Sequence record: OR352938.1
Strand: one strand, 5' to 3'
Length of the DNA: 64,000 bases
From: Escherichia phage AV108
Every line of letters begins with the position of its first letter. Position 1 is the stretch's first letter. Positions 1,160 to 62,402 of this stretch are shown here, in pieces. Under the pieces are notes generated by a model. It was given only the letters and a program-made list of their open reading frames with translations, made no database searches and was not told the origin of the DNA. Position numbers and translations under genes: made by a program.

Positions 1160-1170
1160 CATTTTTAACA

Positions 1171-1199
1171 AGCCGATCCATGTGGTCGGCTTTATTTTT
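1171..1199 (+). terminator. intrinsic terminator after gene 35
   Basis: GC hairpin agccgatcc...ggtcggct followed by T-run tttatttttat. Confidence 0.6.
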
Positions 1200-10098: not shown

Positions 10099-10121
10099 GT
10101 GATTCTCCTTTAGTTTGGTAT

Positions 10122-10156
10122 GGGAGTATAATACTACTCCCATTTCTTTACGTCAA
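10122..10156 (-). promoter_or_regulatory. sigma70-type early promoter with stem-loop (PeSL-like)
   Basis: TTGACG-N17-TATTAT leftward; hairpin gggagta-taatac-tactccc. Confidence 0.6.
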
Positions 10157-10159
10157 CAA

Positions 10160-10321
10160 CTATTTTAAATTATTTTCGACCTTCATCCATTCCGCGTATT
10201 CTTGCGCGGCTACTTTCGGATTTAGTCCGTCTTCGTACATTGCTTCAAGTAATTCTTCGTCGGTGGGCTTATATCCTAGATAAGCCTCCACCTGATTTTT
10301 CCAAATTTTATACCAGTTCAT
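10160..10321 (-). CDS. hypothetical protein
   Basis: About 53 aa from MNWYKIW; the track ORF overlaps the upstream gene. Confidence 0.3.
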   Translation of the reverse strand: MNWYKIWKNQVEAYLGYKPTDEELLEAMYEDGLNPKVAAQEYAEWMKVENNLK

Positions 10322-10325
10322 ATTA

Positions 10326-10598
10326 TCACCAATCAAGAGCGCGTGTCTCTGCGTCTTCCCATGCTTGATCCATAACAGCCTTGAAAACATATTCTAGAGT
10401 ATCATCTTTAGAGAATCCGAAGACCTTAGACGGGATATCTTCAATTGCTACTCCCGCAACTTCTGCATTACGCGCTTGGCAATAATGCAACTCTAAGTTA
10501 TCGAGATAGCGACCGCCTAATTTATCCATATCATCCCAGCATTTCCAGTAACCTACTTGATCTGCAATTGCTAACACTTTGCTGTTTTTGTTGCTCAT
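10326..10598 (-). CDS. hypothetical protein
   Basis: About 90 aa from MSNKNSKV; RBS upstream. Confidence 0.4.
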   Translation of the reverse strand: MSNKNSKVLAIADQVGYWKCWDDMDKLGGRYLDNLELHYCQARNAEVAGVAIEDIPSKVFGFSKDDTLEYVFKAVMDQAWEDAETRALDW

Positions 10599-10629
10599 CT
10601 TTGATTCTCCTTTTGTTTGGTATGGGTGT

Positions 10630-10658
10630 ATTATGCAATGCTGGATTTGTGAAGTCAA
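10630..10658 (-). promoter_or_regulatory. sigma70-type early promoter
   Basis: TTGACT-N17-CATAAT leftward, directly downstream of a terminator. Confidence 0.55.
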
Positions 10659-10671
10659 CAACTTTTTAAAA

Positions 10672-10698
10672 TAAAAAAGCCGACCACAAGGATCGGCT
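10672..10698 (-). terminator. intrinsic terminator
   Basis: Hairpin gccgacc-acaa-ggatcggc with flanking T-run on the leftward strand. Confidence 0.6.
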
Positions 10699-10708
10699 TA
10701 ATAATCAG

Positions 10709-11101
10709 TTACTTACTAAATTTCTTTTTGGCTTCGTCTACTGCATGAGATGCCAGTACCGCAGCCGCATGTGCACTTTTATCTGTGTTACATAGAACAC
10801 CCAGATAAACATCACGCCAAAGTTTAATCATCTCGTAGATCATATCAATATCATTTTCTTGTTTGTTGGTGATGCTATTCGTCGTTATCTGGTAAGGTAA
10901 CGGCTTAATCTGTACTGGTTCCGCCATCGGGCTAAACGGTTTCTGATCAGTCATCGGATTAATTGGTGGCGATGTTTTCCATACGTCATTATTCCACGGT
11001 TTAATCGTTGTATCGTAAAGTTTATAAGGATTTTTGTCCGGGTCAACCATCCATGCATGATGAGTACCCAAACCATTTGAAGTGATGCGTCGTTCAGTCA
11101 T
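10709..11101 (-). CDS. hypothetical protein
   Basis: 130-aa ORF; proline-rich middle; no motif recognised. Confidence 0.4.
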   Translation of the reverse strand: MTERRITSNGLGTHHAWMVDPDKNPYKLYDTTIKPWNNDVWKTSPPINPMTDQKPFSPMAEPVQIKPLPYQITTNSITNKQENDIDMIYEMIKLWRDVYLGVLCNTDKSAHAAAVLASHAVDEAKKKFSK

Positions 11102-14901: not shown

Positions 14902-17010
14902 TTAAAATTTAACATTCTTAACCAGTTTCATAAAGTCTTGTGCGCGTTTGTCGTTATGCAGAATACGATACCAGTTATCTACAATATCATACAGTAACGG
15001 GCTATTATCTTTAAACTTCGCACAAACTGCTTTAATTCGTTCGTTTGCTGCCGTGAATTTTTCATCACAGATCTTTTTAGTTTCTTCGTCCATAATCCAA
15101 CGAGTATGAAGGAGTAACTTGGAAACCTCTTTATTATAATGACGACCGTACAGTCTGTCAATAAATTCTGGAACACAGCGTTCTAGTTCATCGTCATGAA
15201 ACAACATAGTGATCACACCCAGATATTCGCCATACCCCAGATGATTGGTCTTAACCTTCTTAGCCAGACCAGCCAGCTTACCGCGAACAAATTCTAGCGC
15301 ACATTCCAATTGTTCGTCAACGAGATATTTTTGTGTCTCGTTACGAGTAATAATATACTTTGTTACCCCGAAGTAGTCAAGCGCCGTGTGTAATGTATTT
15401 TCACTATAGATCGATTTACGACTACGGCTTTCGAATGCATCACCTACGCGGAACATGTGCAAGCCTGATAACTCGCGAATCTCTGCCGCTTTCATGTGAT
15501 GGCTGGTTTTATGCCAACTGTCACCAATCTTTTCCATAATATACACGTTAGGCAGCTTAGGAGTCGCTTCACGTTGTGTACGCTCGGTCTTCTCCGGTTT
15601 AACTGCTTTAGCACGCAGATCATCGGCCTCTGATACTTTAATAACGGTCATTTCAGAATCATCATAATACTGTTTGATGTACTCGAAAGTCTCCATATGT
15701 TTTTCGTTGTTCTGACGGAACACCAGTACCTTTTTATTGATGCCGTATTCCTGGACCATGCCGTTAAGAGTCAGTGCACGCAGTTTCGGTTTATCGGTAT
15801 CATCAATAAGACACGTAATATCTTCTTTATGCATCCATACAAAATGCGTAATATTGTATTGACTGCTAACGAAAGCAGGTCGCAATTTGCTGATTGTGTG
15901 TCGATGATGATACAGAGTATACACCTGACCTTCTACGTCATTAGGCGAATCTTTACCCGCATTCACAAACTTATTATAGATTGCTACCGGATCATCCCAC
16001 TGTCCGATCTTACCCATCTTGCTAATAATATTGCGTTGCGTCGATGAATACTCGCTCATAAATTGCGCAAGTTTACGCTCTGTTTTAATGTTGGCGATCT
16101 TCTCTTTAACCTTTTCCAACATCATTTCATTGATTTCTGCAATGCGTTTTTCGATGTTCGCTTTAGTCTCAATTGACAAGTGAACTTCTTCACGCGATGG
16201 CATCAGGTCCAGATCACCCAACTCAAAATTAATGTAAATGGTCTGGTGCTGGCGGTTTACAGCTTCTAACCATGTTCCGCGAACATATTCATACGGGATC
16301 GGATACTGGATCTTACCCATGATTGCATATACGACATAGGAATCGTTGTCACGCCCATTACACACATAATAATTATCAAAGCTAGGGAAATAATTAATTT
16401 CGATTGCATTGATATTTGGTTTGTGTTCCCCAAAGTGACGCAGTACAAATTGCGCTTCTCTATGCCATGTCTGAATATCTTTTTCTTTCACTGGAATAGT
16501 GATTTTCAGACCATTGTCTTCATAGGTCGGTTCGTCAAAAATCTGCACCATTTTCGGCATAGAGTTTTGCACAAATGCCGTAAAGCCATAAGCGCGACCA
16601 TTGTAATAGTTTACGATTGTAAAGGTGTCGGTATAGCTATAAGCAGACTTCGCACCCAAACCAAAAGACCCGATATAGTCATTAGTCTGGTCTTTTGTTG
16701 ATTCAAAGTAAACCGTAAACAGTTGTTCTAATTCTTTCTTAGACGGAATACCAGTACCATAATCACGCACAGAAAAATACGGTTCGATTGCAGTCGGTAA
16801 ATGAATATCAAACGGACGATCTAAGGTTCCGGCTTCTTTGTGAGTGTCGGTAGCATTGCACGAATACTCACGGACGCAAGCACGTTCACAATATTGATAA
16901 GTGTTCTTAGAAAGCACCATAAAAGCCTTGCTACTTGCTTTCAGTGAAAAATCAACCGCACCGCTCAAGTCACTGCCAAATACTTCTTCATTATCAATAT
17001 GCATTTTCAT
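14902..17010 (-). CDS. rIIA: rIIA protein (GHKL ATPase-like)
   Basis: 702 aa; Bergerat-fold motifs DYGTGIP and GSFGLGAKS; immediately upstream of rIIB as in T4. Confidence 0.85.
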   Translation of the reverse strand: MKMHIDNEEVFGSDLSGAVDFSLKASSKAFMVLSKNTYQYCERACVREYSCNATDTHKEAGTLDRPFDIHLPTAIEPYFSVRDYGTGIPSKKELEQLFTVYFESTKDQTNDYIGSFGLGAKSAYSYTDTFTIVNYYNGRAYGFTAFVQNSMPKMVQIFDEPTYEDNGLKITIPVKEKDIQTWHREAQFVLRHFGEHKPNINAIEINYFPSFDNYYVCNGRDNDSYVVYAIMGKIQYPIPYEYVRGTWLEAVNRQHQTIYINFELGDLDLMPSREEVHLSIETKANIEKRIAEINEMMLEKVKEKIANIKTERKLAQFMSEYSSTQRNIISKMGKIGQWDDPVAIYNKFVNAGKDSPNDVEGQVYTLYHHRHTISKLRPAFVSSQYNITHFVWMHKEDITCLIDDTDKPKLRALTLNGMVQEYGINKKVLVFRQNNEKHMETFEYIKQYYDDSEMTVIKVSEADDLRAKAVKPEKTERTQREATPKLPNVYIMEKIGDSWHKTSHHMKAAEIRELSGLHMFRVGDAFESRSRKSIYSENTLHTALDYFGVTKYIITRNETQKYLVDEQLECALEFVRGKLAGLAKKVKTNHLGYGEYLGVITMLFHDDELERCVPEFIDRLYGRHYNKEVSKLLLHTRWIMDEETKKICDEKFTAANERIKAVCAKFKDNSPLLYDIVDNWYRILHNDKRAQDFMKLVKNVKF

Positions 17011-17024
17011 AATATAATCCTCAC

Positions 17025-22989: not shown

Positions 22990-23744
22990 TATAAACCTAC
23001 CTTCGCTTTCATCAATTCAATCCACGACGCATCAATCGGAAGCCCGTATTTCACGCGTTCTTTTTGTGCTGGCGTTAAGTTCTCATACTTAGAAAGAGAT
23101 TCAATCAAAACGCTGGTATATTTTAGCACGATTTCGGTATTGTTTGCAATAGCCTTAAGTTTTTCTTCTTTCTTGTTGATTTCGCTAAGGGCTTGCTTGA
23201 GATCTGCAATTTTCTGATAACGTTCTTCCATACGGAAGAGAGTATTTTTAATCGCTCGCTCGGCTGCCTCTGCTTTCTCCGGTTCGTTGTGTTTTTTATG
23301 GCGCTCGATTGCTAATTTCTTTTCTTCGATTGCCATTTCCTGATTTTTGATGCGATTCTCGTTAAGTTCGATCCACTCGATGTACTTCGCACGTAGGGCA
23401 ATTTCATCATCAGAAAGTTTACCTTTAGTTCCCAGTTCCTGGATCTCTTTAAGAGATTCGATAGTGTGATTGCCACGGAAAGAATTATATTTCAGTTTAA
23501 CCGGAATTACATTGCCATCAACATATCCCAGATTGCAATCAATGCGCTCTAAGGAGAGTCCGTCATCACCTTCACCAAACGCTTCACCTGAATATGCGCA
23601 ATGAGTCTGACGGTAAATGTTACGCACAGTGACTAAGCTCATAGAGAAGTCTTTGTTGCGACGTGAAGCGCCAGCCATGATAGAGTTCAGACGGAAAACA
23701 ACCAGCGCCAATTCTTCGTTAGATTTAAAAGCAAACAGTTTCAT
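22989..23744 (-). CDS. Srd-like protein
   Basis: 251 aa, coiled-coil-rich C-terminal half; size and position match T4 srd; by synteny only. Confidence 0.45.
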   Translation of the reverse strand: MKLFAFKSNEELALVVFRLNSIMAGASRRNKDFSMSLVTVRNIYRQTHCAYSGEAFGEGDDGLSLERIDCNLGYVDGNVIPVKLKYNSFRGNHTIESLKEIQELGTKGKLSDDEIALRAKYIEWIELNENRIKNQEMAIEEKKLAIERHKKHNEPEKAEAAERAIKNTLFRMEERYQKIADLKQALSEINKKEEKLKAIANNTEIVLKYTSVLIESLSKYENLTPAQKERVKYGLPIDASWIELMKAKVGL

Positions 23745-23773
23745 AATTGATTCTCCTTAGTTGGTATGTGTGT

Positions 23774-24378: not shown

Positions 24379-24897
24379 TTAGTAGCCGCGTTCTTGACGG
24401 GCGAAGTTTTCAGCATTTTTCAGATAGTACAGCTTGAAGATATCCTTAGCGGTTAAACCTAAGCCCAGCATTTTAATCAGCACAAAATGCCAGATATCGA
24501 TCAATTCCATCACAATTTCGGTTTTATCGTCATCTGACAGATCAGCAAATTTACGCGCTCGTGCTTCGCCGTGGTTCTTCTTCCACACTTTAGTAATTGC
24601 GCTTGCATCTTTGCCATTTGACATGCCACCCAGGGCAACATAAAGTTCTCGTGTCTCGTCGTCGATTGCGTCATCCCACAACTTCATCCAGTCAAGGATC
24701 TCCCCGCAAGTTTCCAGCTTATCAGGATGCATTACCCACTCAAATTTATCAGCTAGTGCGACCTGTAATCCTTTTTGCATATCTAACATTACTTGCAGCG
24801 GATCTTTACCGCTAGTGATTGCCTCGGAATACGCAATACCAGCTTTAGACATAGTTTCATCATTAACAAGACCAGCACAAGAATTAAATTCACTCAT
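24379..24897 (-). CDS. putative dCTPase/dUTPase-like all-alpha NTP pyrophosphatase (gp56-like)
   Basis: Start taken at MSEFNSCAGL; helix-rich, DPLQVMLDMQ, ELIDIWHFVL motifs resemble MazG/gp56-type enzymes; by eye only. Confidence 0.45.
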   Translation of the reverse strand: MSEFNSCAGLVNDETMSKAGIAYSEAITSGKDPLQVMLDMQKGLQVALADKFEWVMHPDKLETCGEILDWMKLWDDAIDDETRELYVALGGMSNGKDASAITKVWKKNHGEARARKFADLSDDDKTEIVMELIDIWHFVLIKMLGLGLTAKDIFKLYYLKNAENFARQERGY

Positions 24898-24907
24898 AAT
24901 AAACCTC

Positions 24908-25471
24908 TCAAATAACATTAAACACTGCAAATTCACCGTGATACTTATACGCATAGTCATTATATACTATTGCGGCGTCTATTTCTAGGTCAAATTGTCC
25001 TATATAGACTTTATTTCCTTCATTGTCCCTTATCTGGGCGACCCATTTACCCGAACGACTATTATAATGCACTCCTTTAAAATTGCTAGTTTTAGTTTGG
25101 TTGTTTCTTCTCATATTTTGGGTATTCTGTTTTTGTGTCGCCTCTCTTAAGTTTGGAGGATCGTTGTTCTCTGGATTCCCGTCAATATGGTCAATGACAG
25201 GTGGGCAATACCCATGCTCTAAGAAGAATACTATTCTATGCACAAGCTCAAAATATTGTTTTCCTTCAAAAGAAAATGAGACTTTTAGGTGTCCGGCTGT
25301 GACTTTAGATACCTTTACTATATCACCAACCTTATAAAACTGGCCTTCTTTCGTCGTTCGGCTTGCTTTGCTGTTTGTTTTATGAATCAATATACCCCTT
25401 TCGTGTCTATATCTTCGACGTATTTCATCCTTTAATTCATCGCTCCATTCTTTGGCTTTCCTTACCCTCAC
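24908..25471 (-). CDS. free-standing HNH homing endonuclease with AP2 DNA-binding domain
   Basis: HNH motif HRIVFFLEHGYCPPVIDHIDGNPENNDPPNLREATQKQN; AP2-like FKGVHYNSRSGKWVAQI...YIGQFD...EIDAA. Confidence 0.75.
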   Translation of the reverse strand: MRVRKAKEWSDELKDEIRRRYRHERGILIHKTNSKASRTTKEGQFYKVGDIVKVSKVTAGHLKVSFSFEGKQYFELVHRIVFFLEHGYCPPVIDHIDGNPENNDPPNLREATQKQNTQNMRRNNQTKTSNFKGVHYNSRSGKWVAQIRDNEGNKVYIGQFDLEIDAAIVYNDYAYKYHGEFAVFNVI

Positions 25472-25488
25472 AATACAACCCTCATTAA

Positions 25489-45703: not shown

Positions 45704-46214
45704 TCAAAAATTCAACTTCACGACGTTTAATATCTTCTTGAAGGTCTTTAATCTTCTGTCGATCTTGCATGATTTCATCCATCTTGTCAAGTGCTGCAAT
45801 GAAATCATCGAAACGTTCAAAGGTTTTACCTTCATTTGCTTCGCTAAATTTAACCATAGTCAGACCGTAACGACTACTAAACAGACGTTTCAACTGTCCA
45901 ACGATCTTAGAATCAGTGGTTATAACTTCCAATTCTTCTACTTCTTGAAAGAATTTTCTATCAGAATCAATAAACCAGCTAGTTCCTTTATGGTTGCTAT
46001 CTTCGGTTGCACTCATTAGAGTATGGTCTTTACCATCAATTTCAATTACATCAATTTGCCCACATGGACTAACCTTTTTAACAGTAAAAGGTCTATAATT
46101 TATTGCTCGTGCAATAACATAATTAAGGTTAGATACGTTTTCAGCATAATGGCAGAAGTCGGTCATAGCATTCGCATCTTTCCAGGTGTAAGTTTTACCA
46201 ATTTCCCATTTCAT
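45681..46214 (-). CDS. paralogous-family protein B
   Basis: MKWEIGKTYTWK...PFTVKKVSPCGQIDVIEIDGKDH; tandem family member. Confidence 0.5.
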   Translation of the reverse strand: MKWEIGKTYTWKDANAMTDFCHYAENVSNLNYVIARAINYRPFTVKKVSPCGQIDVIEIDGKDHTLMSATEDSNHKGTSWFIDSDRKFFQEVEELEVITTDSKIVGQLKRLFSSRYGLTMVKFSEANEGKTFERFDDFIAALDKMDEIMQDRQKIKDLQEDIKRREVEFLIGKERGW

Positions 46215-46226
46215 AATATATTCCCC

Positions 46227-46706
46227 TTAACCGATTTTATCAAGTTCGTTTAATGCTTTCTCTGCTTCCTGTATAGCTTGCACCCTTTCCGGCATTTTGT
46301 CAAGAAAATCTTTCAACTCTTCAAAACTGGAGATATGACGCAAGGCGTTAGCACCGATAGCCGCATGTGATTTGCATTCAAAGCGGATTTTATAATTATC
46401 CATCGCCAACTTGAGAAGATCAATTAATTTAGATTCTTCTGGAATAATAATTTCTTCAAATCTGCTACGGTCATGATCCAGAAACCAACAAGATAGACCT
46501 ACATCGGTTGAACTCATATAAGTTCCATCATGAAGATAAACAGACCGCACGTATCCTTTTTTCGCATCAACCGACGCAACTTTAAACGGTAATCGCAGAT
46601 ATTTCAAATAATCAACATCATACCATTTAAAAAATTGGTTTGCATCTTTTACATCTTTCCACGCATAGGTCTTACCAGCTTCCCATTTCATAATATCATC
46701 TCTCAT
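46227..46706 (-). CDS. paralogous-family protein C
   Basis: MKWEAGKTYAWK...PFKVASVD; tandem family member. Confidence 0.5.
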   Translation of the reverse strand: MRDDIMKWEAGKTYAWKDVKDANQFFKWYDVDYLKYLRLPFKVASVDAKKGYVRSVYLHDGTYMSSTDVGLSCWFLDHDRSRFEEIIIPEESKLIDLLKLAMDNYKIRFECKSHAAIGANALRHISSFEELKDFLDKMPERVQAIQEAEKALNELDKIG

Positions 46707-47232
46707 TTTTGATACGTGATTCTAATTGGATCATACGGTCGCGCGTTTGTTTGTATTCTCGGATAGCACCGATCCGGCTAGGCATACCATCCAGTACGCT
46801 CTTAATACCTTCTAGGGTAGTAATTTTGGCAATGCTATTATGTAACCCCATCTTATCGATCAACTGAATGTCGTAGGCTTCCATAAGCAGACCCAAGCGT
46901 TCTAAAGTTAGGTCTTCTTCTTTTTCTTCCGAATCTGGAATCTTAGGTTCAATAGTAACTTCGGTAAAGAAACGACGCTCACCCGACCAAAACCACACGC
47001 CGGAACAACCAATAGGGGATTCTTTTAACGTCATAGAGTCGAAATTACTACCAATAATAGTAATTTCTCTAACATCACCATCATCGTCAAGGTCTTCTAC
47101 CCTAAACGGGCGACCAGCCAACAGGTCAACAATACATCTGTTAATAGACGACGAAAATTTAGTCAGTTCGGCTTTCGACGCTTCACATTCAATCTTGTAA
47201 GTTTTACCAACTTCCCATTCCATAATAATCAC
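46696..47232 (-). CDS. paralogous-family protein D
   Basis: MEWEVGKTYKIE...PFRVEDLDDDGDVREITIIG; tandem family member. Confidence 0.5.
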   Translation of the reverse strand: MIIMEWEVGKTYKIECEASKAELTKFSSSINRCIVDLLAGRPFRVEDLDDDGDVREITIIGSNFDSMTLKESPIGCSGVWFWSGERRFFTEVTIEPKIPDSEEKEEDLTLERLGLLMEAYDIQLIDKMGLHNSIAKITTLEGIKSVLDGMPSRIGAIREYKQTRDRMIQLESRIKNER

Positions 47233-47954: not shown

Positions 47955-48503
47955 TTATTTTAAATTTTTTCGAATGTAGTCAGACCATTCCTTCCCTGTC
48001 AGTTCGGTCCCATTCTGGAAACTGAAATATTCATACGGCATCGAGTCAAGATAAAACAGGATCATACATCGCGCCATATAATACCAATCACGATTAAAGT
48101 AAACTACGTTATCACCAGTACCATCAACCCCTTTATCATAACCATCGCGGGTACGGGCAACCCATTGAATAGTATCATTTTTCTCACGGATAGTAACAGG
48201 TTCCCAATATCCAGCACATCCAGCATGACCACACGAACAAGTAAGGAAATATTGTCCTTTTGCTTTGTTGTCATCCCATTCACGATGGATCGGTTTGATT
48301 TCGTGAAACATTGCCAAACAATCATGATTATGCAACACCGGCTTACCATCAATCAATGCATGGAATGTATACAAACGACCCGTAGACAAATAGCTATCCT
48401 CACGCTCAACCAGTTCAATAGCAATCTTTTTAGCTCGTTCTTTGTGTCGTTGTGCTTTACGCTTACGGTTTAATGATTTCATATTCACCTCACACATTAT
48501 CAA
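47955..48503 (-). CDS. hypothetical protein (cysteine cluster)
   Basis: 182-aa ORF; CSCGHAGCAGYW cluster. Confidence 0.45.
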   Translation of the reverse strand: MIMCEVNMKSLNRKRKAQRHKERAKKIAIELVEREDSYLSTGRLYTFHALIDGKPVLHNHDCLAMFHEIKPIHREWDDNKAKGQYFLTCSCGHAGCAGYWEPVTIREKNDTIQWVARTRDGYDKGVDGTGDNVVYFNRDWYYMARCMILFYLDSMPYEYFSFQNGTELTGKEWSDYIRKNLK

Positions 48504-49039
48504 AGGTCGCGATATAGTACATTATGAAAATGAGAACTTGCATTACCAATATTGTAGATAATAAATTCTTCATCCGGCGCTTGCGCTACAAATTGAGTAT
48601 GAGCAACCGCCACAACCTTAAAAATACGATCCGTGATCTTGTGTTTAATTTCTGCCCCTACTTCCATAGGAACATATTCATTTGTTTCTGTTTCAGTCGC
48701 AAAACAGCCATCTTCTTCATAAGCACGAACAAATCTGTCGCAATCAGTACGCTTAACAAATTCAAGAGTATATAATTCTCGTGAATTGTCGGTATAGACC
48801 AATACAGAATTATTATGATAGCGAATCACATACAGGTTATTATCATCGTCAATTACGCAAAAGCTACGGATTCCTTCGCCTTGACTCCAGCAGATATTAA
48901 CCACCGTTCCTCTAATAAAAAAACTTTCCTTTAAATTAAAACTAGTCAATGTGCTAGCGTGCATTTTAACAACAACACCATCGCCAATTTCCAGTTTACG
49001 AATTTTAACTTCTTTGCTCAGTACACAAAACATCATCAT
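48500..49039 (-). CDS. hypothetical protein
   Basis: 179-aa ORF. Confidence 0.45.
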   Translation of the reverse strand: MMMFCVLSKEVKIRKLEIGDGVVVKMHASTLTSFNLKESFFIRGTVVNICWSQGEGIRSFCVIDDDNNLYVIRYHNNSVLVYTDNSRELYTLEFVKRTDCDRFVRAYEEDGCFATETETNEYVPMEVGAEIKHKITDRIFKVVAVAHTQFVAQAPDEEFIIYNIGNASSHFHNVLYRDL

Positions 49040-49068
49040 GTTGTCCTCTCGTTGTTTTCGATGTGAGC

Positions 49069-49096
49069 ATTATACATTAGCTAATCATGTTGTCAA
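49069..49096 (-). promoter_or_regulatory. sigma70-type early promoter
   Basis: TTGACA-N16-TATAAT immediately downstream of the nrdD terminator. Confidence 0.55.
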
Positions 49097-49102
49097 CACC
49101 CC

Positions 49103-49139
49103 AAAACGAAAAAGCCGACCCTTTCGGATCGGCTAAAAA
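49103..49139 (-). terminator. intrinsic terminator after nrdD
   Basis: agccgacc-cttt-cggatcggct hairpin flanked by A/T runs. Confidence 0.6.
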
Positions 49140-51002
49140 TTACATGTGCTTAACGCGGTTTACCATCTCGGAGTGTTTCCCGTGGTTAAATGGACGCAGA
49201 TCAACAGATCCAAGATATCCACTAACGCGACGGATAACATTCATCTTTTCCAGATTGTCGTTGCCGCAATCAGGACAAACAAAACCAGACTCGGTCGCTC
49301 TCATTTCCTTATTAGACCCGCATACATGACATACATCAGAAGGAGTATTAACACCGAAGTAGTGCAATTTATCCATTGCATAGTCTACTACAGTTTCAAG
49401 ACCTTTCAGGTTGTTTTTCATGTCTGGGAACTCAACATAAGAGATCATGCCACCGGACGCCAGCCAGTGATAATCTTTCTCAAAGTCAATTTTCTCAAAC
49501 GGTGTAACCTTCCGGTCTACGTCAAGGTGGAATGAGTTGGTGTACCAGTCTTTATCGGTAGCACCCTTAACAATACCAAATTGCTCTCTGTCCAGTCGAT
49601 TAAATCGATAGCAAAGGCTCTCGGCTGGCGTACCGTAAAGACTAAACCCAAGTCCGGTTTCGTCCTTCCATTTTTCAGTATAATGACGCAAGATCTTAAG
49701 AATATGTTTACCGTATCGCTGCGCATCTTCCGAATCAAACGGATGAACATCAAACAGGACGCTCAATACCTCATGTAAACCAATATATCCAAGAGAGATA
49801 CTAGCGCGACCATCTTTCAACACTTCCAAAATTTCATCGTTTTGATGAATACGGAAAAATGCACCTTCGGTATATAGTACAGGAGCAACATTGGCTTTAG
49901 CGCCTTTTAAAGCGTCTACGCGACTCATGAGCGCATCAAAACAAATAGGCATACGATTAGCTAGCTCTTGTTCGAATAGCTCAATTCTGCGCATTACAGA
50001 CGCTTTACCAGCACGACGCGCGGCAATAAGAGCAATACGCGGAAGATTCAGAGTCACAACACCCAAGTTATTACGTCCGTCTAATACTTCTTCGCCTTTC
50101 TCATTATGCCATACACCCAGGAAGCTACGACAACCCATCGGGCTAACCGGAACACTAGATCCAGTGATGCTACGGTTATTCTTCGCAGAGATATAATCAG
50201 GGTAAAGACGCTTACTAGAACATTCCAATGCAAGTTGCTTAATGTCGTAGTTCGGATCTTCCGGTTTAAGGTTTAATCCTTCTTCTAAGAACATCACCAG
50301 CTTAGGAAACACCGGAGTTATACCGTCTTTACCTAAACCTTTAGTTCGAACTTTCAGGATCGCTTTCTGAATCAGTTTTTCTTCCCAGCTAGTACCCATA
50401 CCAAAGGTTAAAGTCACAAAAGGCGTTTGACCGTTGGTGGAGAACAAAGTGTTGATTTCATATTCCAACGCTTGATACCCGTCTAGCGTTTCTTTTTCTG
50501 TCTTCTCTTGTGCATAGAGAGTATCAGCTTTGATTCCGTAGGTTTCGGCATCAGCAAGGTGTTTATGATATGTTTTCTCAACGTATGGCGCTAAAACCTG
50601 ATCGATGTTTGCAATTGTGGTCCCGCCATATTGATGACTTGCCACCTGTGCGATAATTTGAGCGGTTACAGCACAAGCAACGCCGATCGATTTCGGACTT
50701 TCGATTTGTGCGCTACCCAATTTAAAACCATTCTCTAACATGTCTTTGAGATTAACAAGACAGCAGTTAGTAAACGGCATAGCGGGTGCATAATCCATAT
50801 CATGATAATGAATATCACCGTCTACATGCGCTTTATAGATGTGCTCAGGTAACACGGTTTTAGCAATCTGTTTAGACACAGCGCCAGCAATCAGATCTCG
50901 ACGTGTCGGGAATGTTCGCGCGTCTTTGTTCGCGTTCTCTTTACTTACTTCGTTTTCTTTACCCGTTGCGATCTCTGTAATGTCTTTGATTAGTTTTTCC
51001 AT
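49140..51002 (-). CDS. nrdD: anaerobic ribonucleoside-triphosphate reductase
   Basis: 620 aa; C-terminal glycyl-radical motif RVSGYLG; zinc-ribbon cysteines CHVCG...CPDCG. Confidence 0.95.
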   Translation of the reverse strand: MEKLIKDITEIATGKENEVSKENANKDARTFPTRRDLIAGAVSKQIAKTVLPEHIYKAHVDGDIHYHDMDYAPAMPFTNCCLVNLKDMLENGFKLGSAQIESPKSIGVACAVTAQIIAQVASHQYGGTTIANIDQVLAPYVEKTYHKHLADAETYGIKADTLYAQEKTEKETLDGYQALEYEINTLFSTNGQTPFVTLTFGMGTSWEEKLIQKAILKVRTKGLGKDGITPVFPKLVMFLEEGLNLKPEDPNYDIKQLALECSSKRLYPDYISAKNNRSITGSSVPVSPMGCRSFLGVWHNEKGEEVLDGRNNLGVVTLNLPRIALIAARRAGKASVMRRIELFEQELANRMPICFDALMSRVDALKGAKANVAPVLYTEGAFFRIHQNDEILEVLKDGRASISLGYIGLHEVLSVLFDVHPFDSEDAQRYGKHILKILRHYTEKWKDETGLGFSLYGTPAESLCYRFNRLDREQFGIVKGATDKDWYTNSFHLDVDRKVTPFEKIDFEKDYHWLASGGMISYVEFPDMKNNLKGLETVVDYAMDKLHYFGVNTPSDVCHVCGSNKEMRATESGFVCPDCGNDNLEKMNVIRRVSGYLGSVDLRPFNHGKHSEMVNRVKHM

Positions 51003-51048: not shown

Positions 51049-51543
51049 TTATTTTACCAGTTCTGCTAATTCTTTTTCTTTAGCTTCTAGTTCAGCTTTA
51101 AGCTGTTTAATCTCTTGTCGCTTCTTATTAGCGGCTTCTTGCTTACTATTTCGGATAACCTGATCTAGATACAACTCCCAATCCTGAATATTTTTGATAA
51201 TGTATCCGTCAACATTAATTGGTCGGAGATTCAGTACAGCTTCCAGTTTAGTCGCAAAAACTTTAATTGCTGGTGTGAAGTATTCATATTCGTTATCTTC
51301 AAACCAATAACCTAGACTTGCATTATCAATACGAAGACGAAGTTCAAGATCAAGGTCTTTATCTTCGGTGTAAAGATCTTTCACCTGACCCAGCGAACTA
51401 ACAACAACTTTAAAACGAATTTTATCTACACCACCAAACACATCAGTAAGTATATCAGCAATTGAGCTATTAGCGCAAGATTGGTCGCTGAATGCGTCAA
51501 GGTTTTCTTTAGTTACAGTATACCAAACATCTTGTACCCACAT
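51049..51543 (-). CDS. paralogous-family protein H
   Basis: WYTVTKENLDAF...IRFKVVVSS...WFEDNEYEYF with coiled-coil C-terminus; family member. Confidence 0.45.
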   Translation of the reverse strand: MWVQDVWYTVTKENLDAFSDQSCANSSIADILTDVFGGVDKIRFKVVVSSLGQVKDLYTEDKDLDLELRLRIDNASLGYWFEDNEYEYFTPAIKVFATKLEAVLNLRPINVDGYIIKNIQDWELYLDQVIRNSKQEAANKKRQEIKQLKAELEAKEKELAELVK

Positions 51544-51573
51544 AATATAATCCTCTCGTTGTTAAGTGGGAGT

Positions 51574-51601: not shown

Positions 51602-52776
51602 GCACTAACTTTTTTCTTTACTGCTTTCACCTTCTGGCGAATTGCTCGAATCTCTTCGATCTCTTTTTCAGTATCTTTAACAATTTCTTTGCGATTCTGA
51701 ATATCTTTATCGAGATTATCATCAAGTTTAGGCAGCATGTCAATCAAGAACTTTTTAAGGTCTTTCAGGTTGCGAATAACAGTACCTTCACCCATTACCG
51801 CCACGCCTACACCATCCGGCAGATCACCAAACAGTTTAACCAGTTCAGACAGATGATCATGATCTTCTAGTGCTTCTTCCGGTTCAGATGGCAGTTCAAC
51901 AAAGTAATAACGTTCATCATTGCTGATCAGGTGATACCAGCAAAGCCCAAAAGATTTAGGAGTATATTCTACACCACCAACTTCAACTGCGTCAACACTT
52001 CCGAAAGAATCTACTTTAGTTACCTTAAATCCATGTTCCAGCGTTTTAATAATTTCAATAACATGACTGGATACGGTTTCAGTATTAAACCAATGAGGCA
52101 AATTATGTGGATTTGGCTTGTATCGTTCGCCTACTTTAAATCTCTGACCACGCTCTTGCATACGGACATATTCAACTCGCGTGATTTCCGCGAAGTATTC
52201 AAATTCGCTACCGTCAAACAAGCAATTCCATTGATCACAAAAACGATCCGCCTTGACGGTTTCACCTTTCGCGGTGATCATGGTAGCTGATCCGTGCAAT
52301 TCTTCTTCAACTAAAAAGCCATATTCGACAAAATCAACAAGTTTCATGGCTTCTTTGTGCTCTGGGTCATGCTCTCCCCAGAATCGCTTAAATTCTTGCA
52401 AACCTTCTGGGGTAAACGAATAACATTTACCTTTTTCAAAGTAAGTCGGCATTGCATCCTCTTTCTTGTTCATCGCTTCGTATGCCTCTTTTGAGATACG
52501 TTTAAAGTATTTGCGCTCATTGTGCATAATCATAGTAGACCAATAATAAACGATATCCTCAGCGGAATAAACTACATCTCCAGCTTCAATAGTAATAACA
52601 TGACCGTGGTCATCTTTTTCTAATACTTTAAAGCCCTTTTCTACGATTTCAGCAACCCGAATATGACCACGGCGCGAAGCATCGGTCAGAATAATTGAAT
52701 AGCGAGAAAAGTCTAGAAACTCATCTTTACCGCCTTCACGGAATGCATAGTAATGACCTTCAAAGAATTTAGCCAT
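51598..52776 (-). CDS. paralogous-family protein E (three tandem domain copies)
   Basis: 392 aa; repeated GFKVLEK..., GFLVEEE..., GFKVTKVDSFGSVDAVEVGG modules; ERKYFKRIS shared with F. Confidence 0.5.
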   Translation of the reverse strand: MAKFFEGHYYAFREGGKDEFLDFSRYSIILTDASRRGHIRVAEIVEKGFKVLEKDDHGHVITIEAGDVVYSAEDIVYYWSTMIMHNERKYFKRISKEAYEAMNKKEDAMPTYFEKGKCYSFTPEGLQEFKRFWGEHDPEHKEAMKLVDFVEYGFLVEEELHGSATMITAKGETVKADRFCDQWNCLFDGSEFEYFAEITRVEYVRMQERGQRFKVGERYKPNPHNLPHWFNTETVSSHVIEIIKTLEHGFKVTKVDSFGSVDAVEVGGVEYTPKSFGLCWYHLISNDERYYFVELPSEPEEALEDHDHLSELVKLFGDLPDGVGVAVMGEGTVIRNLKDLKKFLIDMLPKLDDNLDKDIQNRKEIVKDTEKEIEEIRAIRQKVKAVKKKVSA

Positions 52777-52808
52777 AATATAATCCTCTCGTTGTTTAGA
52801 TGGGAGTA

Positions 52809-56600: not shown

Positions 56601-56909
56601 TTATTTCACGTTAACGCCGTCATCAATCCAGCCGACGCTATTGGGTTTAACAGTTTTACCATAGGATGCATACTTAATCAAGCATGGTTTAACATCATTA
56701 TCAAATCTTCCTAAACGTACTCCCAAATCAGGAATATCCATGTATGCGGCTTTATATCCCCATGTACCGTATTCAGAATCAATCTCAACCGGACGGCCTT
56801 TAAAAGCATACACTACACCGTGACGGTCAACGATAACATAGCAATAACCAGCCGGAAGATACACAGTTTCGCCGTAAACTTTAACTGGAGTAGCAGAAGA
56901 GATAAACAT
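56601..56909 (-). CDS. hypothetical protein
   Basis: About 102 aa from MFISSATPVKVYG with GAGGAT RBS; track ORF begins inside the promoter. Confidence 0.4.
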   Translation of the reverse strand: MFISSATPVKVYGETVYLPAGYCYVIVDRHGVVYAFKGRPVEIDSEYGTWGYKAAYMDIPDLGVRLGRFDNDVKPCLIKYASYGKTVKPNSVGWIDDGVNVK

Positions 56910-56935
56910 AATATAATCCTCACATCGTTCATTTG

Positions 56936-58227: not shown

Positions 58228-58481
58228 AGTTTCCTCAACCAGTTATTCAAGCGAGTAAACCATGATGCTTTTCGTGCTTCTTTTACTTTATGTGCACGTA
58301 AACCACTGAAACACCATTCATAATCATCACTGAAACATGATTCAACAGGAACACCCGCATTTCGTAGTTCTCTGGTCTTTATCATGAATCCTTGACATAA
58401 GGGGCGACCTTCAACAATGATAGGAAGTTTAACTTTTTCCATGAAAGTATACCCAGCACGGTCAATAATTTCAATTTTCAT
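58224..58481 (-). CDS. hypothetical protein
   Basis: 85-aa ORF. Confidence 0.4.
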   Translation of the reverse strand: MKIEIIDRAGYTFMEKVKLPIIVEGRPLCQGFMIKTRELRNAGVPVESCFSDDYEWCFSGLRAHKVKEARKASWFTRLNNWLRKL

Positions 58482-59374: not shown

Positions 59375-59665
59375 TCAAATGGTAGTTTTGCGAAGATGGT
59401 CATTACATGCTTTTAATGCATCAGTCGCGGTGTCATAGCGAGTATTATCATAGCACCAATAACCATCTGTCAACTGATAAATTAATCCATCCTTTTTAGC
59501 TTCGATGAAAGATAACTCTTTGAAAGTTTCTACTTTCTTTGCTGATACTCCACGGTCACGGCGTTTATAGAGTTTAGCTAAAATGCGTTCAGCTTGTTCC
59601 TCTTTATCACCTGACAGATCCCAGATGATGTTTCGGATATGCTTGATTAATTGTTCAGTGGTCAT
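59375..59665 (-). CDS. hypothetical protein
   Basis: 96-aa ORF with AAGGAG RBS. Confidence 0.4.
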   Translation of the reverse strand: MTTEQLIKHIRNIIWDLSGDKEEQAERILAKLYKRRDRGVSAKKVETFKELSFIEAKKDGLIYQLTDGYWCYDNTRYDTATDALKACNDHLRKTTI

Positions 59666-59694
59666 CTTTGATTCTCCTTAGTTGGTATGCGTGC

Positions 59695-59722
59695 ATTATA
59701 GCATTGTGATTATCTTTGTCAA
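59695..59722 (-). promoter_or_regulatory. sigma70-type early promoter
   Basis: TTGACA-N16-TATAAT directly downstream of a terminator. Confidence 0.55.
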
Positions 59723-59726
59723 CACC

Positions 59727-59760
59727 CAAAAACAAAAAAAGGCTACCCCGAAGGATAGCC
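59727..59760 (-). terminator. intrinsic terminator after the gp38-like gene
   Basis: ggctatcc-ttcg-gggtagcc hairpin followed by a long T-run on the leftward strand. Confidence 0.55.
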
Positions 59761-59768
59761 CATAAAAA

Positions 59769-60545
59769 TTACACGCGAGCACCGTAGATCGTGCCTACTT
59801 TATCCCAGCGAGGGGCATTGCCAGTAACAGCCTTACCAGCCGCTCCGCCATTATACTCTGTACCGTTCCCCTGAGTATTACATCTTCCTCCAGCAGCACC
59901 AACGTTACCGCCCGCACCGCCTGTATATGCACTAAGAGACCCCGAACCAACAGATCCTTTACCCGGAGCGGAAATGGAGCCAGCGGTTGCACCAGAACCC
60001 ATATTAGAGGAAGACCCGGCAGCACCGAATGGGCGACCACCGCCACCACCAAATACTAGTCGACCCCTGTTACCTCCACCGCCGCCACCGCCGCCACCAG
60101 CGATAGCACCGTTATTTGTAATTCGTAGACGTGTACCGATAGCGTTATTGATTGCGTTTCCACCAGCAGCGCCAGCAGCGTTACTACCACCATTACCCCC
60201 ACGTCCGTAGACAGTCACACCGGAGTTAATGATCAATGTTACATATTCGTTTGTTAACGAGCTAGGGAAGTCAAGACAAGGAACGCCAGTAGATTGGGAA
60301 ACAATATCACCCGTGATAGTAATTACTACAGGAGTAGATCCTTGTGCTTTCATCCAGTTAATAAGAGTGTCTTTATTGTAAGAGTTACTAGCACCAATGC
60401 TATAATGAATCTCTTTAGAGCGTCCGACCATTGCCGACATATACGCCGGACGACCTAAGCGTACAGCTTGCATTGCGGCGCTCATCCACCGTTGACCAGT
60501 CTCGGACACAGCAGATGATCCTACCCATCCAGAAGATATTGCCAT
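59769..60545 (-). CDS. glycine-rich protein resembling gp38-type tail fiber adhesin
   Basis: 258 aa; N-terminal GWVGSSAVSETGQRWMS-type segment then several glycine-rich motifs (GRGGNGGSN, GGGGGGGGGNRG, GGGGGRPFGAAG, GGAGGNVGAAGG) separated by short variable stretches; GAGGAA RBS. Confidence 0.5.
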   Translation of the reverse strand: MAISSGWVGSSAVSETGQRWMSAAMQAVRLGRPAYMSAMVGRSKEIHYSIGASNSYNKDTLINWMKAQGSTPVVITITGDIVSQSTGVPCLDFPSSLTNEYVTLIINSGVTVYGRGGNGGSNAAGAAGGNAINNAIGTRLRITNNGAIAGGGGGGGGGNRGRLVFGGGGGRPFGAAGSSSNMGSGATAGSISAPGKGSVGSGSLSAYTGGAGGNVGAAGGRCNTQGNGTEYNGGAAGKAVTGNAPRWDKVGTIYGARV

Positions 60546-60599
60546 AAAATTTCCTCACAAGAAAAGCCCCATTTAAGGTGCATTGATTGATAATATTAC

Positions 60600-60821
60600 T
60601 TAGATGATCTCTGCTTCACCATTCAGGAAGAAAGACCATGTTTTGTTAGGATAGCGAAGCGCCCATGATTCAGCAGTTTTAACACCCGCTTCGAACAATT
60701 GACGGCTGGTTACTTTAGCCATACCATCGAAGATGGCAACGTTTTCAATAATCATCGGGTACTTAGCGCCACGCATGAAACCGAAACCAGCGGAAGATTT
60801 GATAATTTTAACAGTTGCCAT
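60600..60821 (-). CDS. hypothetical protein
   Basis: About 73 aa from MATVKIIKSS with AGGAGA RBS; immediately upstream of the gp38-like gene. Confidence 0.4.
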   Translation of the reverse strand: MATVKIIKSSAGFGFMRGAKYPMIIENVAIFDGMAKVTSRQLFEAGVKTAESWALRYPNKTWSFFLNGEAEII

Positions 60822-61874: not shown

Positions 61875-62073
61875 TCTTCACGGTCTCCATAATTGTTTTG
61901 TAAGCCAGTTTAAGATGATCACCGAAAAACTTTGCGGTGTTACCCTTCGGATCGCGGAGCATGGTTTCTACGATCTCATCGGCAGTAACAATTTCTCCTT
62001 TCTTTGCTGCATGTTCTACCATATACTTCAAAGTTTCTTCGGAAGCAAGTGCTGCCGCTACTGGATTAATCAT
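61864..62073 (-). CDS. hypothetical protein
   Basis: 69-aa ORF with AAGGAG RBS. Confidence 0.4.
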   Translation of the reverse strand: MINPVAAALASEETLKYMVEHAAKKGEIVTADEIVETMLRDPKGNTAKFFGDHLKLAYKTIMETVKNAK

Positions 62074-62096
62074 TTTTGATTCTCCTTTGTTGTCGA

Positions 62097-62125
62097 TATG
62101 TGCATTATGCTATACCCTATTCCGG
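62097..62125 (-). promoter_or_regulatory. sigma70-type early promoter
   Basis: TTGACA-N17-CATAAT immediately downstream of a terminator. Confidence 0.55.
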
Positions 62126-62130
62126 TTGTC

Positions 62131-62166
62131 AACACCTAAAAACGAAAAAGCCACCCTTTCGGATGG
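62131..62166. terminator. hairpin terminator
   Basis: agccaccc-tttc-ggatggct hairpin flanked by A-run and T-run; same sequence family as 49103-49139. Confidence 0.5.
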
Positions 62167-62402
62167 CTTTTTGATTATATTTTATTCACGTCCATTTGTA
62201 TAGTAGTGTTTGAATCGACCTTTGCTAAACTAGTTAAACATAGTAACCAATTCACCATCCCTTTCCAATGATAACCCTTCCTCATCTTAGACGGGTCTTC
62301 CGATTCGGTAGTAATTGAACACGCGAAAGTATGAGGAAGCCAAATAGTTGTGTTAATGCTAGTATTCTTTTACTTCTGGTATGCATCCCACAGTGACTAA
62401 CA

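Follow-up and report, generated by a model that had tools for sequence, protein, structure and literature searches.

The window analysed here is a 64,000-nucleotide stretch of the genome of Escherichia phage AV108 (OR352938.1). Like its relatives RB49, phi1, GEC-3S, Cognac and FL38, this phage is a Krischvirus, one of a group of T4-like coliphages, and the 4-kb stretch around its nrdD cassette is ~98% identical to several deposited Krischvirus genomes. The first 6.8 kb carry rightward late tail-fibre genes; from ~6.8 kb to the end of the window transcription runs leftward, so that the minus strand is the reading strand of the four intergenic cassettes described below. Each cassette fills one whole intergenic gap of ~105 nt, measured from hairpin to ATG. 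The focal one (−35 at 49096) lies between nrdD (upstream) and a 179-aa ORFan (downstream), and the second (59722) downstream of the gene for the gp38 adhesin, the host-range determinant of these phages (PMC9569957), and ahead of a 96-aa ORFan. The third (62132) stands ahead of a 69-aa ORFan and is separated by a 230-nt spacer from the rI.-1-like gene upstream, and the fourth (10658) lies between a 130-aa ORFan (upstream) and a 90-aa ORFan (downstream). In the following, the cassettes are named after a neighbouring gene or after the position at which their −35 hexamer starts. A promoter and a terminator are annotated at the orthologous nrdD site in the GenBank record of GEC-3S, and terminators of these cassettes are annotated in other Krischvirus records too.

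Composite elements of this kind are known as promoter-early stem-loops (PeSLs), which were defined in RB49 and phi1 (Arbiol, Comeau, Kutateladze, Adamia and Krisch, 2010, Genome Biol Evol 2:140; PMC2839356). There are ~52 of them per genome, divided into five subclasses, one of which has its stem-loop upstream of the −35; they are mostly found in hyperplastic regions, ahead of ORFans, and their plastic neighbours include nrdD, hoc and g43, so that nrdD is mentioned there by name (PMC2839356). The early promoters of RB49 have been confirmed by 5′-end mapping (PMC1524935), and the PeSL concept has since been extended to other T4-like groups (Comeau et al., 2014; PMC4122927). The four cassettes of the window have the following parts:

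49037–49139, minus strand: the focal nrdD cassette (PeSL, terminator-upstream subclass), with the nrdD stop codon at 49140–49142 and the ATG of the 179-aa ORFan at 49037–49039
49113–49134, minus strand: hairpin of the nrdD cassette, AGCCGATCC-GAAA-GGGTCGGCT
49097–49112, minus strand: T-run and linker of the nrdD cassette, followed by the −35 hexamer TTGACA at 49091–49096
49069–49074, minus strand: −10 hexamer TATAAT of the nrdD cassette, with the SD GAGAGG at 49045–49050
59663–59766, minus strand: gp38 cassette, with the gp38 stop codon at 59769–59771 and the ATG of the 96-aa ORFan at 59663–59665
59740–59761, minus strand: hairpin of the gp38 cassette, GGGCTATCC-TTCG-GGGTAGCCT
59717–59722, minus strand: −35 hexamer TTGACA of the gp38 cassette, with the −10 TATAAT at 59695–59700 and the SD at 59672–59677
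62071–62172, minus strand: 62132 cassette, with the ATG of the 69-aa ORFan at 62071–62073
62145–62172, minus strand: hairpin of the 62132 cassette, AAAAAGCCATCC-GAAA-GGGTGGCTTTTT, bidirectional in shape
62127–62132, minus strand: −35 hexamer TTGACA of the 62132 cassette, with the −10 CATAAT at 62104–62109 and the SD at 62079–62084
10596–10703, minus strand: 10658 cassette, the most divergent of the four, with the upstream stop codon at 10709–10711 and the ATG of the 90-aa ORFan at 10596–10598
10677–10699, minus strand: hairpin of the 10658 cassette, AAGCCGATCC-TTGT-GGTCGGCTT
10653–10658, minus strand: −35 hexamer TTGACT of the 10658 cassette, with the −10 CATAAT at 10630–10635 and the SD at 10605–10610

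Read 5′ to 3′, the elements follow one order: stop codon, 5–9 nt, a GC-rich hairpin with a tetraloop, T-run, linker, −35, 16–17 nt, −10, a 5′UTR of ~25–35 nt, SD and ATG. The distance of 5–9 nt between the upstream stop codon and the hairpin applies to three of the cassettes, those following nrdD, gp38 and the 130-aa ORFan. The stems comprise 8–12 bp, are closed by tetraloops and end 17–19 nt upstream of the −35 hexamer; T-runs flank the hairpins and would give the RNA a U5–U7 tail. In RNA folding, the four hairpins reach −16.5, −12.7, −14.7 and −17.8 kcal/mol, with z-scores from −3.5 to −5.3. The promoters, 25–35 nt ahead of SD and ATG, match the consensus at 12 of 12 positions in the nrdD and gp38 cassettes, at 11 in the 62132 cassette and at 10 in the 10658 cassette.

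A terminator scan detected all four hairpins, together with a further one on the plus strand (1170–1192), among its strongest matches, and in consensus scans the four cassettes are among the best promoter-like and terminator-like sites of their regions. The total numbers of terminator-like sites are close to what shuffled sequence yields (15 vs 14.0 and 20 vs 14.0), so what counts is not their number but how good they are and where they stand. No Rfam family matched anywhere in the window at the gathering threshold. In sequence, the cassettes have the anatomy of a canonical intrinsic terminator with a consensus sigma-70 promoter behind it.

These results bear on several points of an earlier, sequence-based reading, hereafter the original prediction. 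It had located four copies of a terminator-plus-promoter unit at 10630–10698, 49069–49139, 59695–59760 and 62097–62166, and all four are there, with their functional reading on the minus strand. It had also placed the −10 about 17 nt beyond the −35, in agreement with the measured spacers of 16–17 nt. Its unit size of 50–60 bp was too small, the conserved unit extending over ~105 nt from hairpin to ATG, and the −35 string it quoted, TGTTGACAcc, occurs literally on neither strand; the minus strand reads GGTGTTGACAAC. Its functional proposal, that the terminator insulates the upstream gene and the promoter restarts transcription for the next, is supported by the anatomy, by the GEC-3S annotation and by lacZ fusions of other PeSLs. 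These fusions cover PeSL211/210, 206/205 and 193/192 only, and revealed very strong promoters and a terminator activity comparable to that of rrnB T1 (PMC2839356). For the four copies described here, we infer that both activities are probably present as well.

The four cassettes are part of a wider family within the window, and one of their modules also occurs on its own:

9816–62172, minus strand: span of the PeSL family in the window, with ~23 intergenic cassettes that combine a sigma-70 promoter and a stem-loop
9878, 10156, 10658, 17732, 18102, 20019, 23802, 24371, 31269, 33998, 36024 and 40814, minus strand: −35 starts of the first part of the family
44825, 47950, 49096, 51601, 52836, 53747, 56972, 57648, 59722, 60890 and 62132, minus strand: −35 starts of the remaining members
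10141–10170, minus strand: 5′UTR/SD end of PeSL 10156, which has its hairpin over the −10; recombination partner of the 10658 cassette
1170–1192, plus strand: hairpin module alone, AAGCCGATCC-ATGT-GGTCGGCTT, 22/23 identical to 10677–10699, after a gp35-like late gene

Among the ~23 members, only the four reported copies have the hairpin upstream of the −35. In other members it is found between −35 and −10 (57648, 47950 and 40814), over the −10 (51601, 52836, 53747, 10156, 9878 and 17732) or downstream of it (18102, 31269, 36024, 24371 and 20019). Extended −35/−10 patterns are correspondingly frequent, with 22 matches vs 3.1 expected, and the strands differ strongly, with 53 sigma-70-like sites on the minus strand vs 7 on the plus strand.

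While the copy list of the original prediction holds for the four cassettes, it missed the hairpin-only fifth copy at 1170–1192. No sigma-70 promoter was found downstream of this hairpin, which would act as a putative terminator of the gp35-like late gene; at this position, between genes 35 and 36, T4-like phages are reported to have a conserved terminator (PMC1524935). Beyond the window, in the gp57A/gene 1/dmd region, there is another terminator-type member, which combines the linker and −35 of the family with an unrelated stem, CCCCGAAAA/TTTTCGGGG. Given the lone hairpin on the one hand and this foreign stem with a family linker on the other, the copies are possibly mosaics of sub-modules.

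As to how similar the copies are, whole cassettes are 65–75% identical in pairwise comparisons, vs ~51% after shuffling. In the window, the stem pattern GCCGATCC-N4-GGTCGGC has 6 matches vs 0.45 expected, and the 24-nt linker TTTTTNGTTTTNRGGTGTTGACAA matches exactly three cassettes, which agree at 22–24 of its 24 positions, with 0 matches expected from 100 shuffles even when 3 mismatches are allowed. The 10658 cassette has no match to this linker at up to 3 mismatches. A resemblance by chance is excluded. The stems provide additional detail. Since MAFFT misaligned them, stem pairs were read from the individual RNA folds. The hairpins at 1172–1190 and 10679–10697 have identical arms and different loops, that at 49113–49134 has this stem plus an additional G, and all five hairpins keep a constant inner stem, ATCC/GG(G)T, which includes a G·T wobble. 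The remaining differences between paralogous stems comprise one paired deletion and two double compensatory changes; in the relative ECD7, the G·T wobble of the inner stem is replaced by an A–T pair. Taken together, sequence and folding show that the stem pairing is under selection.

With chance set aside, the likeness could still result from pure functional convergence, in which independent terminators beside strong early promoters have come to resemble each other through consensus needs, with neither a common origin nor a role in recombination. The needs in question are a GC stem with a T-run, an AT-rich upstream region, TTGACA, TATAAT and GGAG. Several observations are in keeping with this view: the modest identity of whole cassettes, the −35/−10 spacers, which at ~36% identity between cassettes are close to random, the coding flanks, in which an alignment of the four cassettes revealed no similarity, the fixed position of every copy within the genus, and the unrelated stem of the gp57A/gene 1/dmd copy. 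As the spacers are essentially unrelated, part of the resemblance indeed reflects functional constraint and not recent copying. Yet any GC-rich stem would terminate, and GCCGATCC..GG(G)TCGGC nevertheless recurs three times, while ATCC..GG(G)T is kept in all five hairpins. Likewise, the linker CGTTTTnGGGTG, which leads from the T-run to the −35, is not a consensus element and is still common to three copies, and a crossover in ECD7, described below, lies inside sequence common to two cassettes. This shared sequence beyond functional need and the chimeric junction make convergence an improbable explanation. The data support instead that the cassettes share sequence, namely the stem arms, the inner stem and the 24-nt linker, that is not demanded by function.

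The term 'near-identical' that the original prediction had used is therefore adequate for sub-segments of three copies, but not for whole cassettes or for the spacers, nor for the 10658 copy, which is an outlier. It had also named an alignment with flanks as a check, and was to fall if this showed no shared flanking sequence and a similarity limited to the generic hairpin and −35 consensus: flanking sequence is indeed not shared, yet the similarity is not limited to a generic consensus.

To follow the cassettes across phages, a 79-nt unit was compared with 50,697 phage records (blastn, 'distant' setting). It matched only 58 Krischvirus records and, marginally, a Stenotrophomonas phage, in which the match is confined to the hairpin (E = 4e-3). 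Nearly all of the 58 records have matches at ~3 places per genome, and all copies that were checked are syntenic. The nrdD copy is syntenic in 58/58 records, where it is mostly 96–100% identical (lowest value, 88%), vs ~65–82% between paralogues inside one genome, which argues against recent copying. Among 5,426 complete E. coli genomes, no match to the cassette was found. An exact scan of IMG/VR for the 24-nt linker returned only a contig identical to ECD7, with four copies, and a 13.8-kb contig (L013).

 A host origin of the cassette was dismissed, as there is no match in the E. coli genomes; L013 was dismissed as a homologue, as it has the linker motif and lacks the hairpin and the −10; and the fourth ECD7 copy (L010) was dismissed as a non-syntenic insertion, as all 58 genomes have it conserved in the gp57A/gene 1/dmd region, beyond the window, which makes it another fixed member of the family.

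The original prediction had also offered 'mobile' as one possible description of the module, and had suggested a search for it at non-syntenic positions in related phages. A self-copying element, MITE- or transposon-like or a homing target, would be spread by a hairpin-recognizing enzyme dedicated to it, be it a transposase, an integrase or a homing endonuclease. Like such an element, the unit is compact, occurs in several copies and carries a hairpin; the hairpin occurs alone on the other strand at 1170–1192; homing endonuclease genes are present in the genus; and PeSL mini-circles have been detected and a stem-loop binding protein has been speculated upon (PMC2839356). Against this stand the positions of the cassettes, as the search across the 58 Krischvirus records found the same copy number, with every checked copy syntenic and at the same place in essentially all of them. 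Neither terminal inverted repeats nor target-site duplications were found around the four units, nothing similar was found in E. coli genomes or non-Krischvirus phages at the sensitivity of blastn, and the exact-pattern scan of IMG/VR yielded an ECD7-like genome and one unrelated contig only. Furthermore, the mapped crossovers lie in the SD/5′UTR and not in the hairpin, and no integrase or recombinase is known in RB49 or phi1 (PMC2839356). The cassettes thus do not qualify as MITEs or transposable elements, and with their fixed positions, no hallmarks of such an element and no recombinase, an active mobile element is very improbable. With copies at fixed positions in 58 records, 'mobile' in the sense of recent transposition is not supported. 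Considering the synteny, the identities of orthologues and paralogues, the E. coli result and the result for terminal repeats and target duplications, the four copies are therefore old paralogues that are fixed in the genus and are not currently transposing.

We compared the window with RB49, phi1, JK32, G2248, Brandy and ECD7, and found for all four copies that the cassette coincides with a mosaic boundary in one relative or more. One case is ECD7, which lacks the window interval 10133–10601. Its junction is a chimeric cassette, in which the terminator, −35 and −10 of the 10658 cassette are fused to the ORF downstream of PeSL 10156, with a crossover inside the AAGGAGAATCA box that is common to both cassettes. 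The two form a direct repeat (family D2; window 10100–10170 and 10602–10672, 71 nt, 76% identical). Brandy has insertions at PeSL 10156 and at PeSL 10658, and both the ECD7 deletion junction and a Brandy insertion fall into the 5′UTR/SD part of the 10658 cassette. An ECD7-type deletion between PeSLs 10156 and 10658 is also the linear product expected of a mini-circle exchange.

At the gp38 cassette, G2248 lacks window 59690–60599, that is, gp38 together with the terminator, −35 and spacer of the cassette. These are replaced by a PeSL of another subclass, whose spacer hairpin is the same as that of the 40814 unit of the window, and homology resumes in 'cataccaactaaggagaatcaaa'. The right end of this gp38 deletion is a stop codon at 60600 and not a PeSL. 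At the 62132 cassette, JK32, G2248 and Brandy each have an insertion of 2.0–2.1 kb (annotated ORF, ~2.1 kb) directly upstream of the terminator; in JK32, the stop codon of the inserted ORF abuts the hairpin. This ORF has no match in Pfam or PADLOC, and only a weak, Hoc-like C-terminal match among PHROGs. In phi1, ORF084.1 lies directly upstream of the same terminator; ORFans 84.1 and 263.1 have been listed as specific to phi1 (PMC2839356), and 263.1 maps to PeSL 9878. At the nrdD cassette, finally, the boundary is a step in similarity: the JK32 cassette is 93–97% identical, and the downstream ORF is 43–83% identical from a few codons in. An equally sharp step follows PeSL 51601; across the two sites, identity in JK32 goes from 93–100% to 40–75% just past the cassette.

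All four cassettes thus have at least one boundary within ~25 nt (~50 nt for some events at 62132). In an informal tally based on 2–4 genomes per region, ~9–10 of 16 distinct events in the window touch a PeSL, a proportion that is confounded because viable indels are expected to be intergenic under any mechanism, once selection has eliminated those that disrupt genes, and PeSLs constitute much of the scarce intergenic DNA. Changes away from PeSLs comprise homing-endonuclease insertions (19876/19943, 24892–25479, 32735/32744 and 41841), a rearrangement within a paralogue family (45915–46212), an indel in ORF074 (58309–58481) and the hypervariable part of gp38. The mosaic boundaries and the ECD7 chimera are as the published PeSL model predicts and support a role of the cassettes as recombination linkers. 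We infer that the junctions were produced by recombination between cassettes rather than by selection on random events. The claim of the original prediction that the module was spread by recombination instead of evolving independently is supported by the sequence shared beyond functional need and by the position of all four copies at indel or mosaic boundaries, one of which is a chimeric cassette.

We consider it very probable that the four units are PeSLs, each an early promoter with a terminator, and that this accounts for how each of them works, for their linker role and for their nature as old paralogues. They contain a sigma-70 promoter directed towards an early ORF, a stem-loop upstream of the −35, an upstream stop codon in an AT-rich region, and SD and ATG at the 3′ end; they are located in an RB49/phi1-type genome next to nrdD, gp38 and ORFans; and they coincide with indel or replacement boundaries, including a chimeric PeSL. 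The cassette is thus already known, as part of a described family in the genus of its first description.

As PeSLs, the cassettes would work as follows. The hairpin and its U-tract would stop transcripts arriving from the upstream gene, be it nrdD, gp38 or an ORFan, and the adjoining promoter would be read by the host sigma-70 RNA polymerase immediately after infection, so that transcription would restart ~25–35 nt ahead of a stereotyped SD and ATG. The T-rich tail of the terminator probably stands in the position that the AT-rich, UP-like region occupies in other PeSLs. Since the ~23 cassettes share 20–100 nt of similar sequence, they may offer the efficient homologous recombination of the phage short patches of homology, or 'linkers'; T4-type recombination needs <50 bp of homology (PMC2839356). 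Genes between cassettes could then be deleted, inserted or swapped with their own expression signals kept.

A further reading assigns the shared hairpin a more active part, as the recognition or cleavage site of a structure-specific phage protein that would set off targeted recombination, and the cassettes would then form an integrase-free, attC-like system. The possibility of hairpin-targeted recombination had already been raised by Arbiol et al. for stem-loops in general (PMC2839356). For the present hairpins, this reading draws on the constant inner stem ATCC/GGGT, on the recurrence of the hairpin on the other strand, as late terminator of gene 35/36, and on the fifth terminator-type cassette, with its unrelated stem, beyond the window; a candidate protein would be endonuclease VII, with an extruded cruciform as its substrate, or another factor. 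As mentioned, crossovers map to the SD/5′UTR and not to the hairpin, and we regard such a system as unlikely.

Seen as PeSLs, the cassettes can be placed among known systems. They share their genus, architecture, hyperplastic location, association with indels, nrdD as a named neighbour and the subclass with an upstream stem-loop with the PeSLs of RB49 and phi1 (PMC2839356), from which they differ in nothing essential. Their stems are of mixed GC sequence (GCCGATCC/GGGTCGGC) and not of the 'frequent' polyG/polyC type, and the junctions in ECD7, G2248, JK32 and Brandy come from genomes that were sequenced after that study. The PeSL-like motifs of T4/PST and KVP40/nt-1 (PMC4122927) are likewise composite terminator/promoter points of exchange between unrelated sequences in hyperplastic regions, but they belong to other T4-like groups, and we found no sequence match outside Krischvirus. 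The T-even elements, which are based on early promoters of the T4 type, have been described as analogous rather than homologous (PMC2839356).

A more distant parallel has been drawn in the same work (PMC2839356): lambdoid morons (Hendrix et al., 2000) are genes that travel with their own promoter and terminator, and the 'linker' sequences of Botstein and Campbell are conserved intergenic stretches that direct recombination to harmless sites. Unlike in these cases, the shared cassette sequence is itself the crossover site here, as the ECD7 junction illustrates. Integrons are comparable in that hairpin-forming attC repeats flank single-gene cassettes and that circular intermediates have been reported for PeSLs (PMC2839356). 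By contrast, the system described here has no integrase, provides each cassette with its own promoter, and has its mapped crossovers in the SD/5′UTR instead of the hairpin.

What is added to the published model is that the four cassettes conform to it in genomes sequenced after 2010 (ECD7, G2248, JK32 and Brandy), while their own positions are stable throughout the genus. PeSLs represent a concrete mechanism of modular evolution in large lytic phages: with promoter/terminator linkers, accessory genes can be gained, lost or swapped and are still correctly expressed and insulated. Among the genes concerned here are nrdD, an auxiliary metabolic gene, and the gene of gp38, the host-range adhesin. 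This is of relevance to host-range shifts in therapeutic coliphages, and several Krischviruses come from phage-therapy cocktails; it is also relevant to phage engineering, in which the cassettes could be used as natural 'landing pads'.

In the comparison with relative JK32, sequence identity drops just downstream of two promoter-early stem-loops (PeSLs; cassettes of a sigma-70 promoter and a stem-loop), those with -35 positions at 49096 and 51601, at the following genes:

48500-49039, minus strand: ORFan directly 3' of PeSL 49096
51049-51543, minus strand: ORFan directly 3' of PeSL 51601

The JK32 alleles of both ORFans are strongly divergent, with ~40-75% nucleotide identity to the window, while identity is 93-100% across the cassettes and the genes preceding them; the boundary falls a few codons inside the downstream ORF. 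In G2248, the gp38 adhesin gene is absent from its usual locus (L005, the G2248 sequence, 3667-3727 vs window 59690-60599), and the two neighbouring ORFans are joined there by a single PeSL of a subclass that differs from the window's.

Comparison with JK32, G2248, Brandy and phi1 identifies a polymorphic insertion site upstream of the 62132 cassette:

62173-62402: spacer of 230 nt, apparently non-coding

The site is occupied by a 712-715 aa ORF in JK32, G2248 and Brandy (in the relatives' sequences, L004 6183-8321 and L005 5309-7453) and by ORF084.1 in phi1. The JK32 copy, the only one scanned, has no match in Pfam or PADLOC; its sole PHROG match is weak, Hoc-like and C-terminal.

Further indels involve two other regions:

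24908-25471, minus strand: homing-endonuclease-like ORF of 187 aa with HNH_3 and AP2 domains
46175-47228, minus strand: three paralogous small genes in tandem (repeat family D6)

The former is flanked by primase (gp61-like) and dCTPase (gp56-like) genes, and the entire 588-nt block containing it (24892-25479) is missing from Brandy and JK32. The D6 paralogues are 76-84% identical at their 5' ends, and the indels in this region (45915-46212), which set Brandy and JK32 apart from the window, fit unequal recombination in which the partners were paralogues and not PeSLs.

Short elements also recur. At many minus-strand sites the translation-initiation region takes one of two stereotyped forms, AAGGAGAATCAAAGATG or GAGGATTATATTATG (repeat families D12 and D1/D5/D8/D10), for example:

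10596-10612, 59663-59680 and 23741-23763, minus strand: initiation regions
17008-17022, 51541-51555, 52774-52788 and 56907-56921, minus strand: initiation regions

The GGAG-type SD could be a RegB-type target. Many PeSLs also have CCCAT(A/C)(C/G)AAAC in common in their initial transcribed region. The 24-nt linker between T-run and -35, together with the -35 pattern, has an exact match in an unrelated metagenomic viral contig of 13.8 kb (IMGVR_UViG_3300030101_003938, 10800-10823), with neither a hairpin nor a -10 box beside it and no similarity to the window found beyond this match.

The cassette hairpin at 10677-10699 has a near-identical copy on the opposite strand:

1170-1192, plus strand: hairpin AAGCCGATCC-ATGT-GGTCGGCTT, 22/23 identical to 10677-10699
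1322-1329: late-promoter-like box TATAAATA, upstream of a gp36-like ORF

This copy serves as a terminator 3' of a gp35-like late tail-fibre gene and has no sigma-70 promoter downstream, which suggests that the hairpin, as a sub-module, is reused independently of the promoter.
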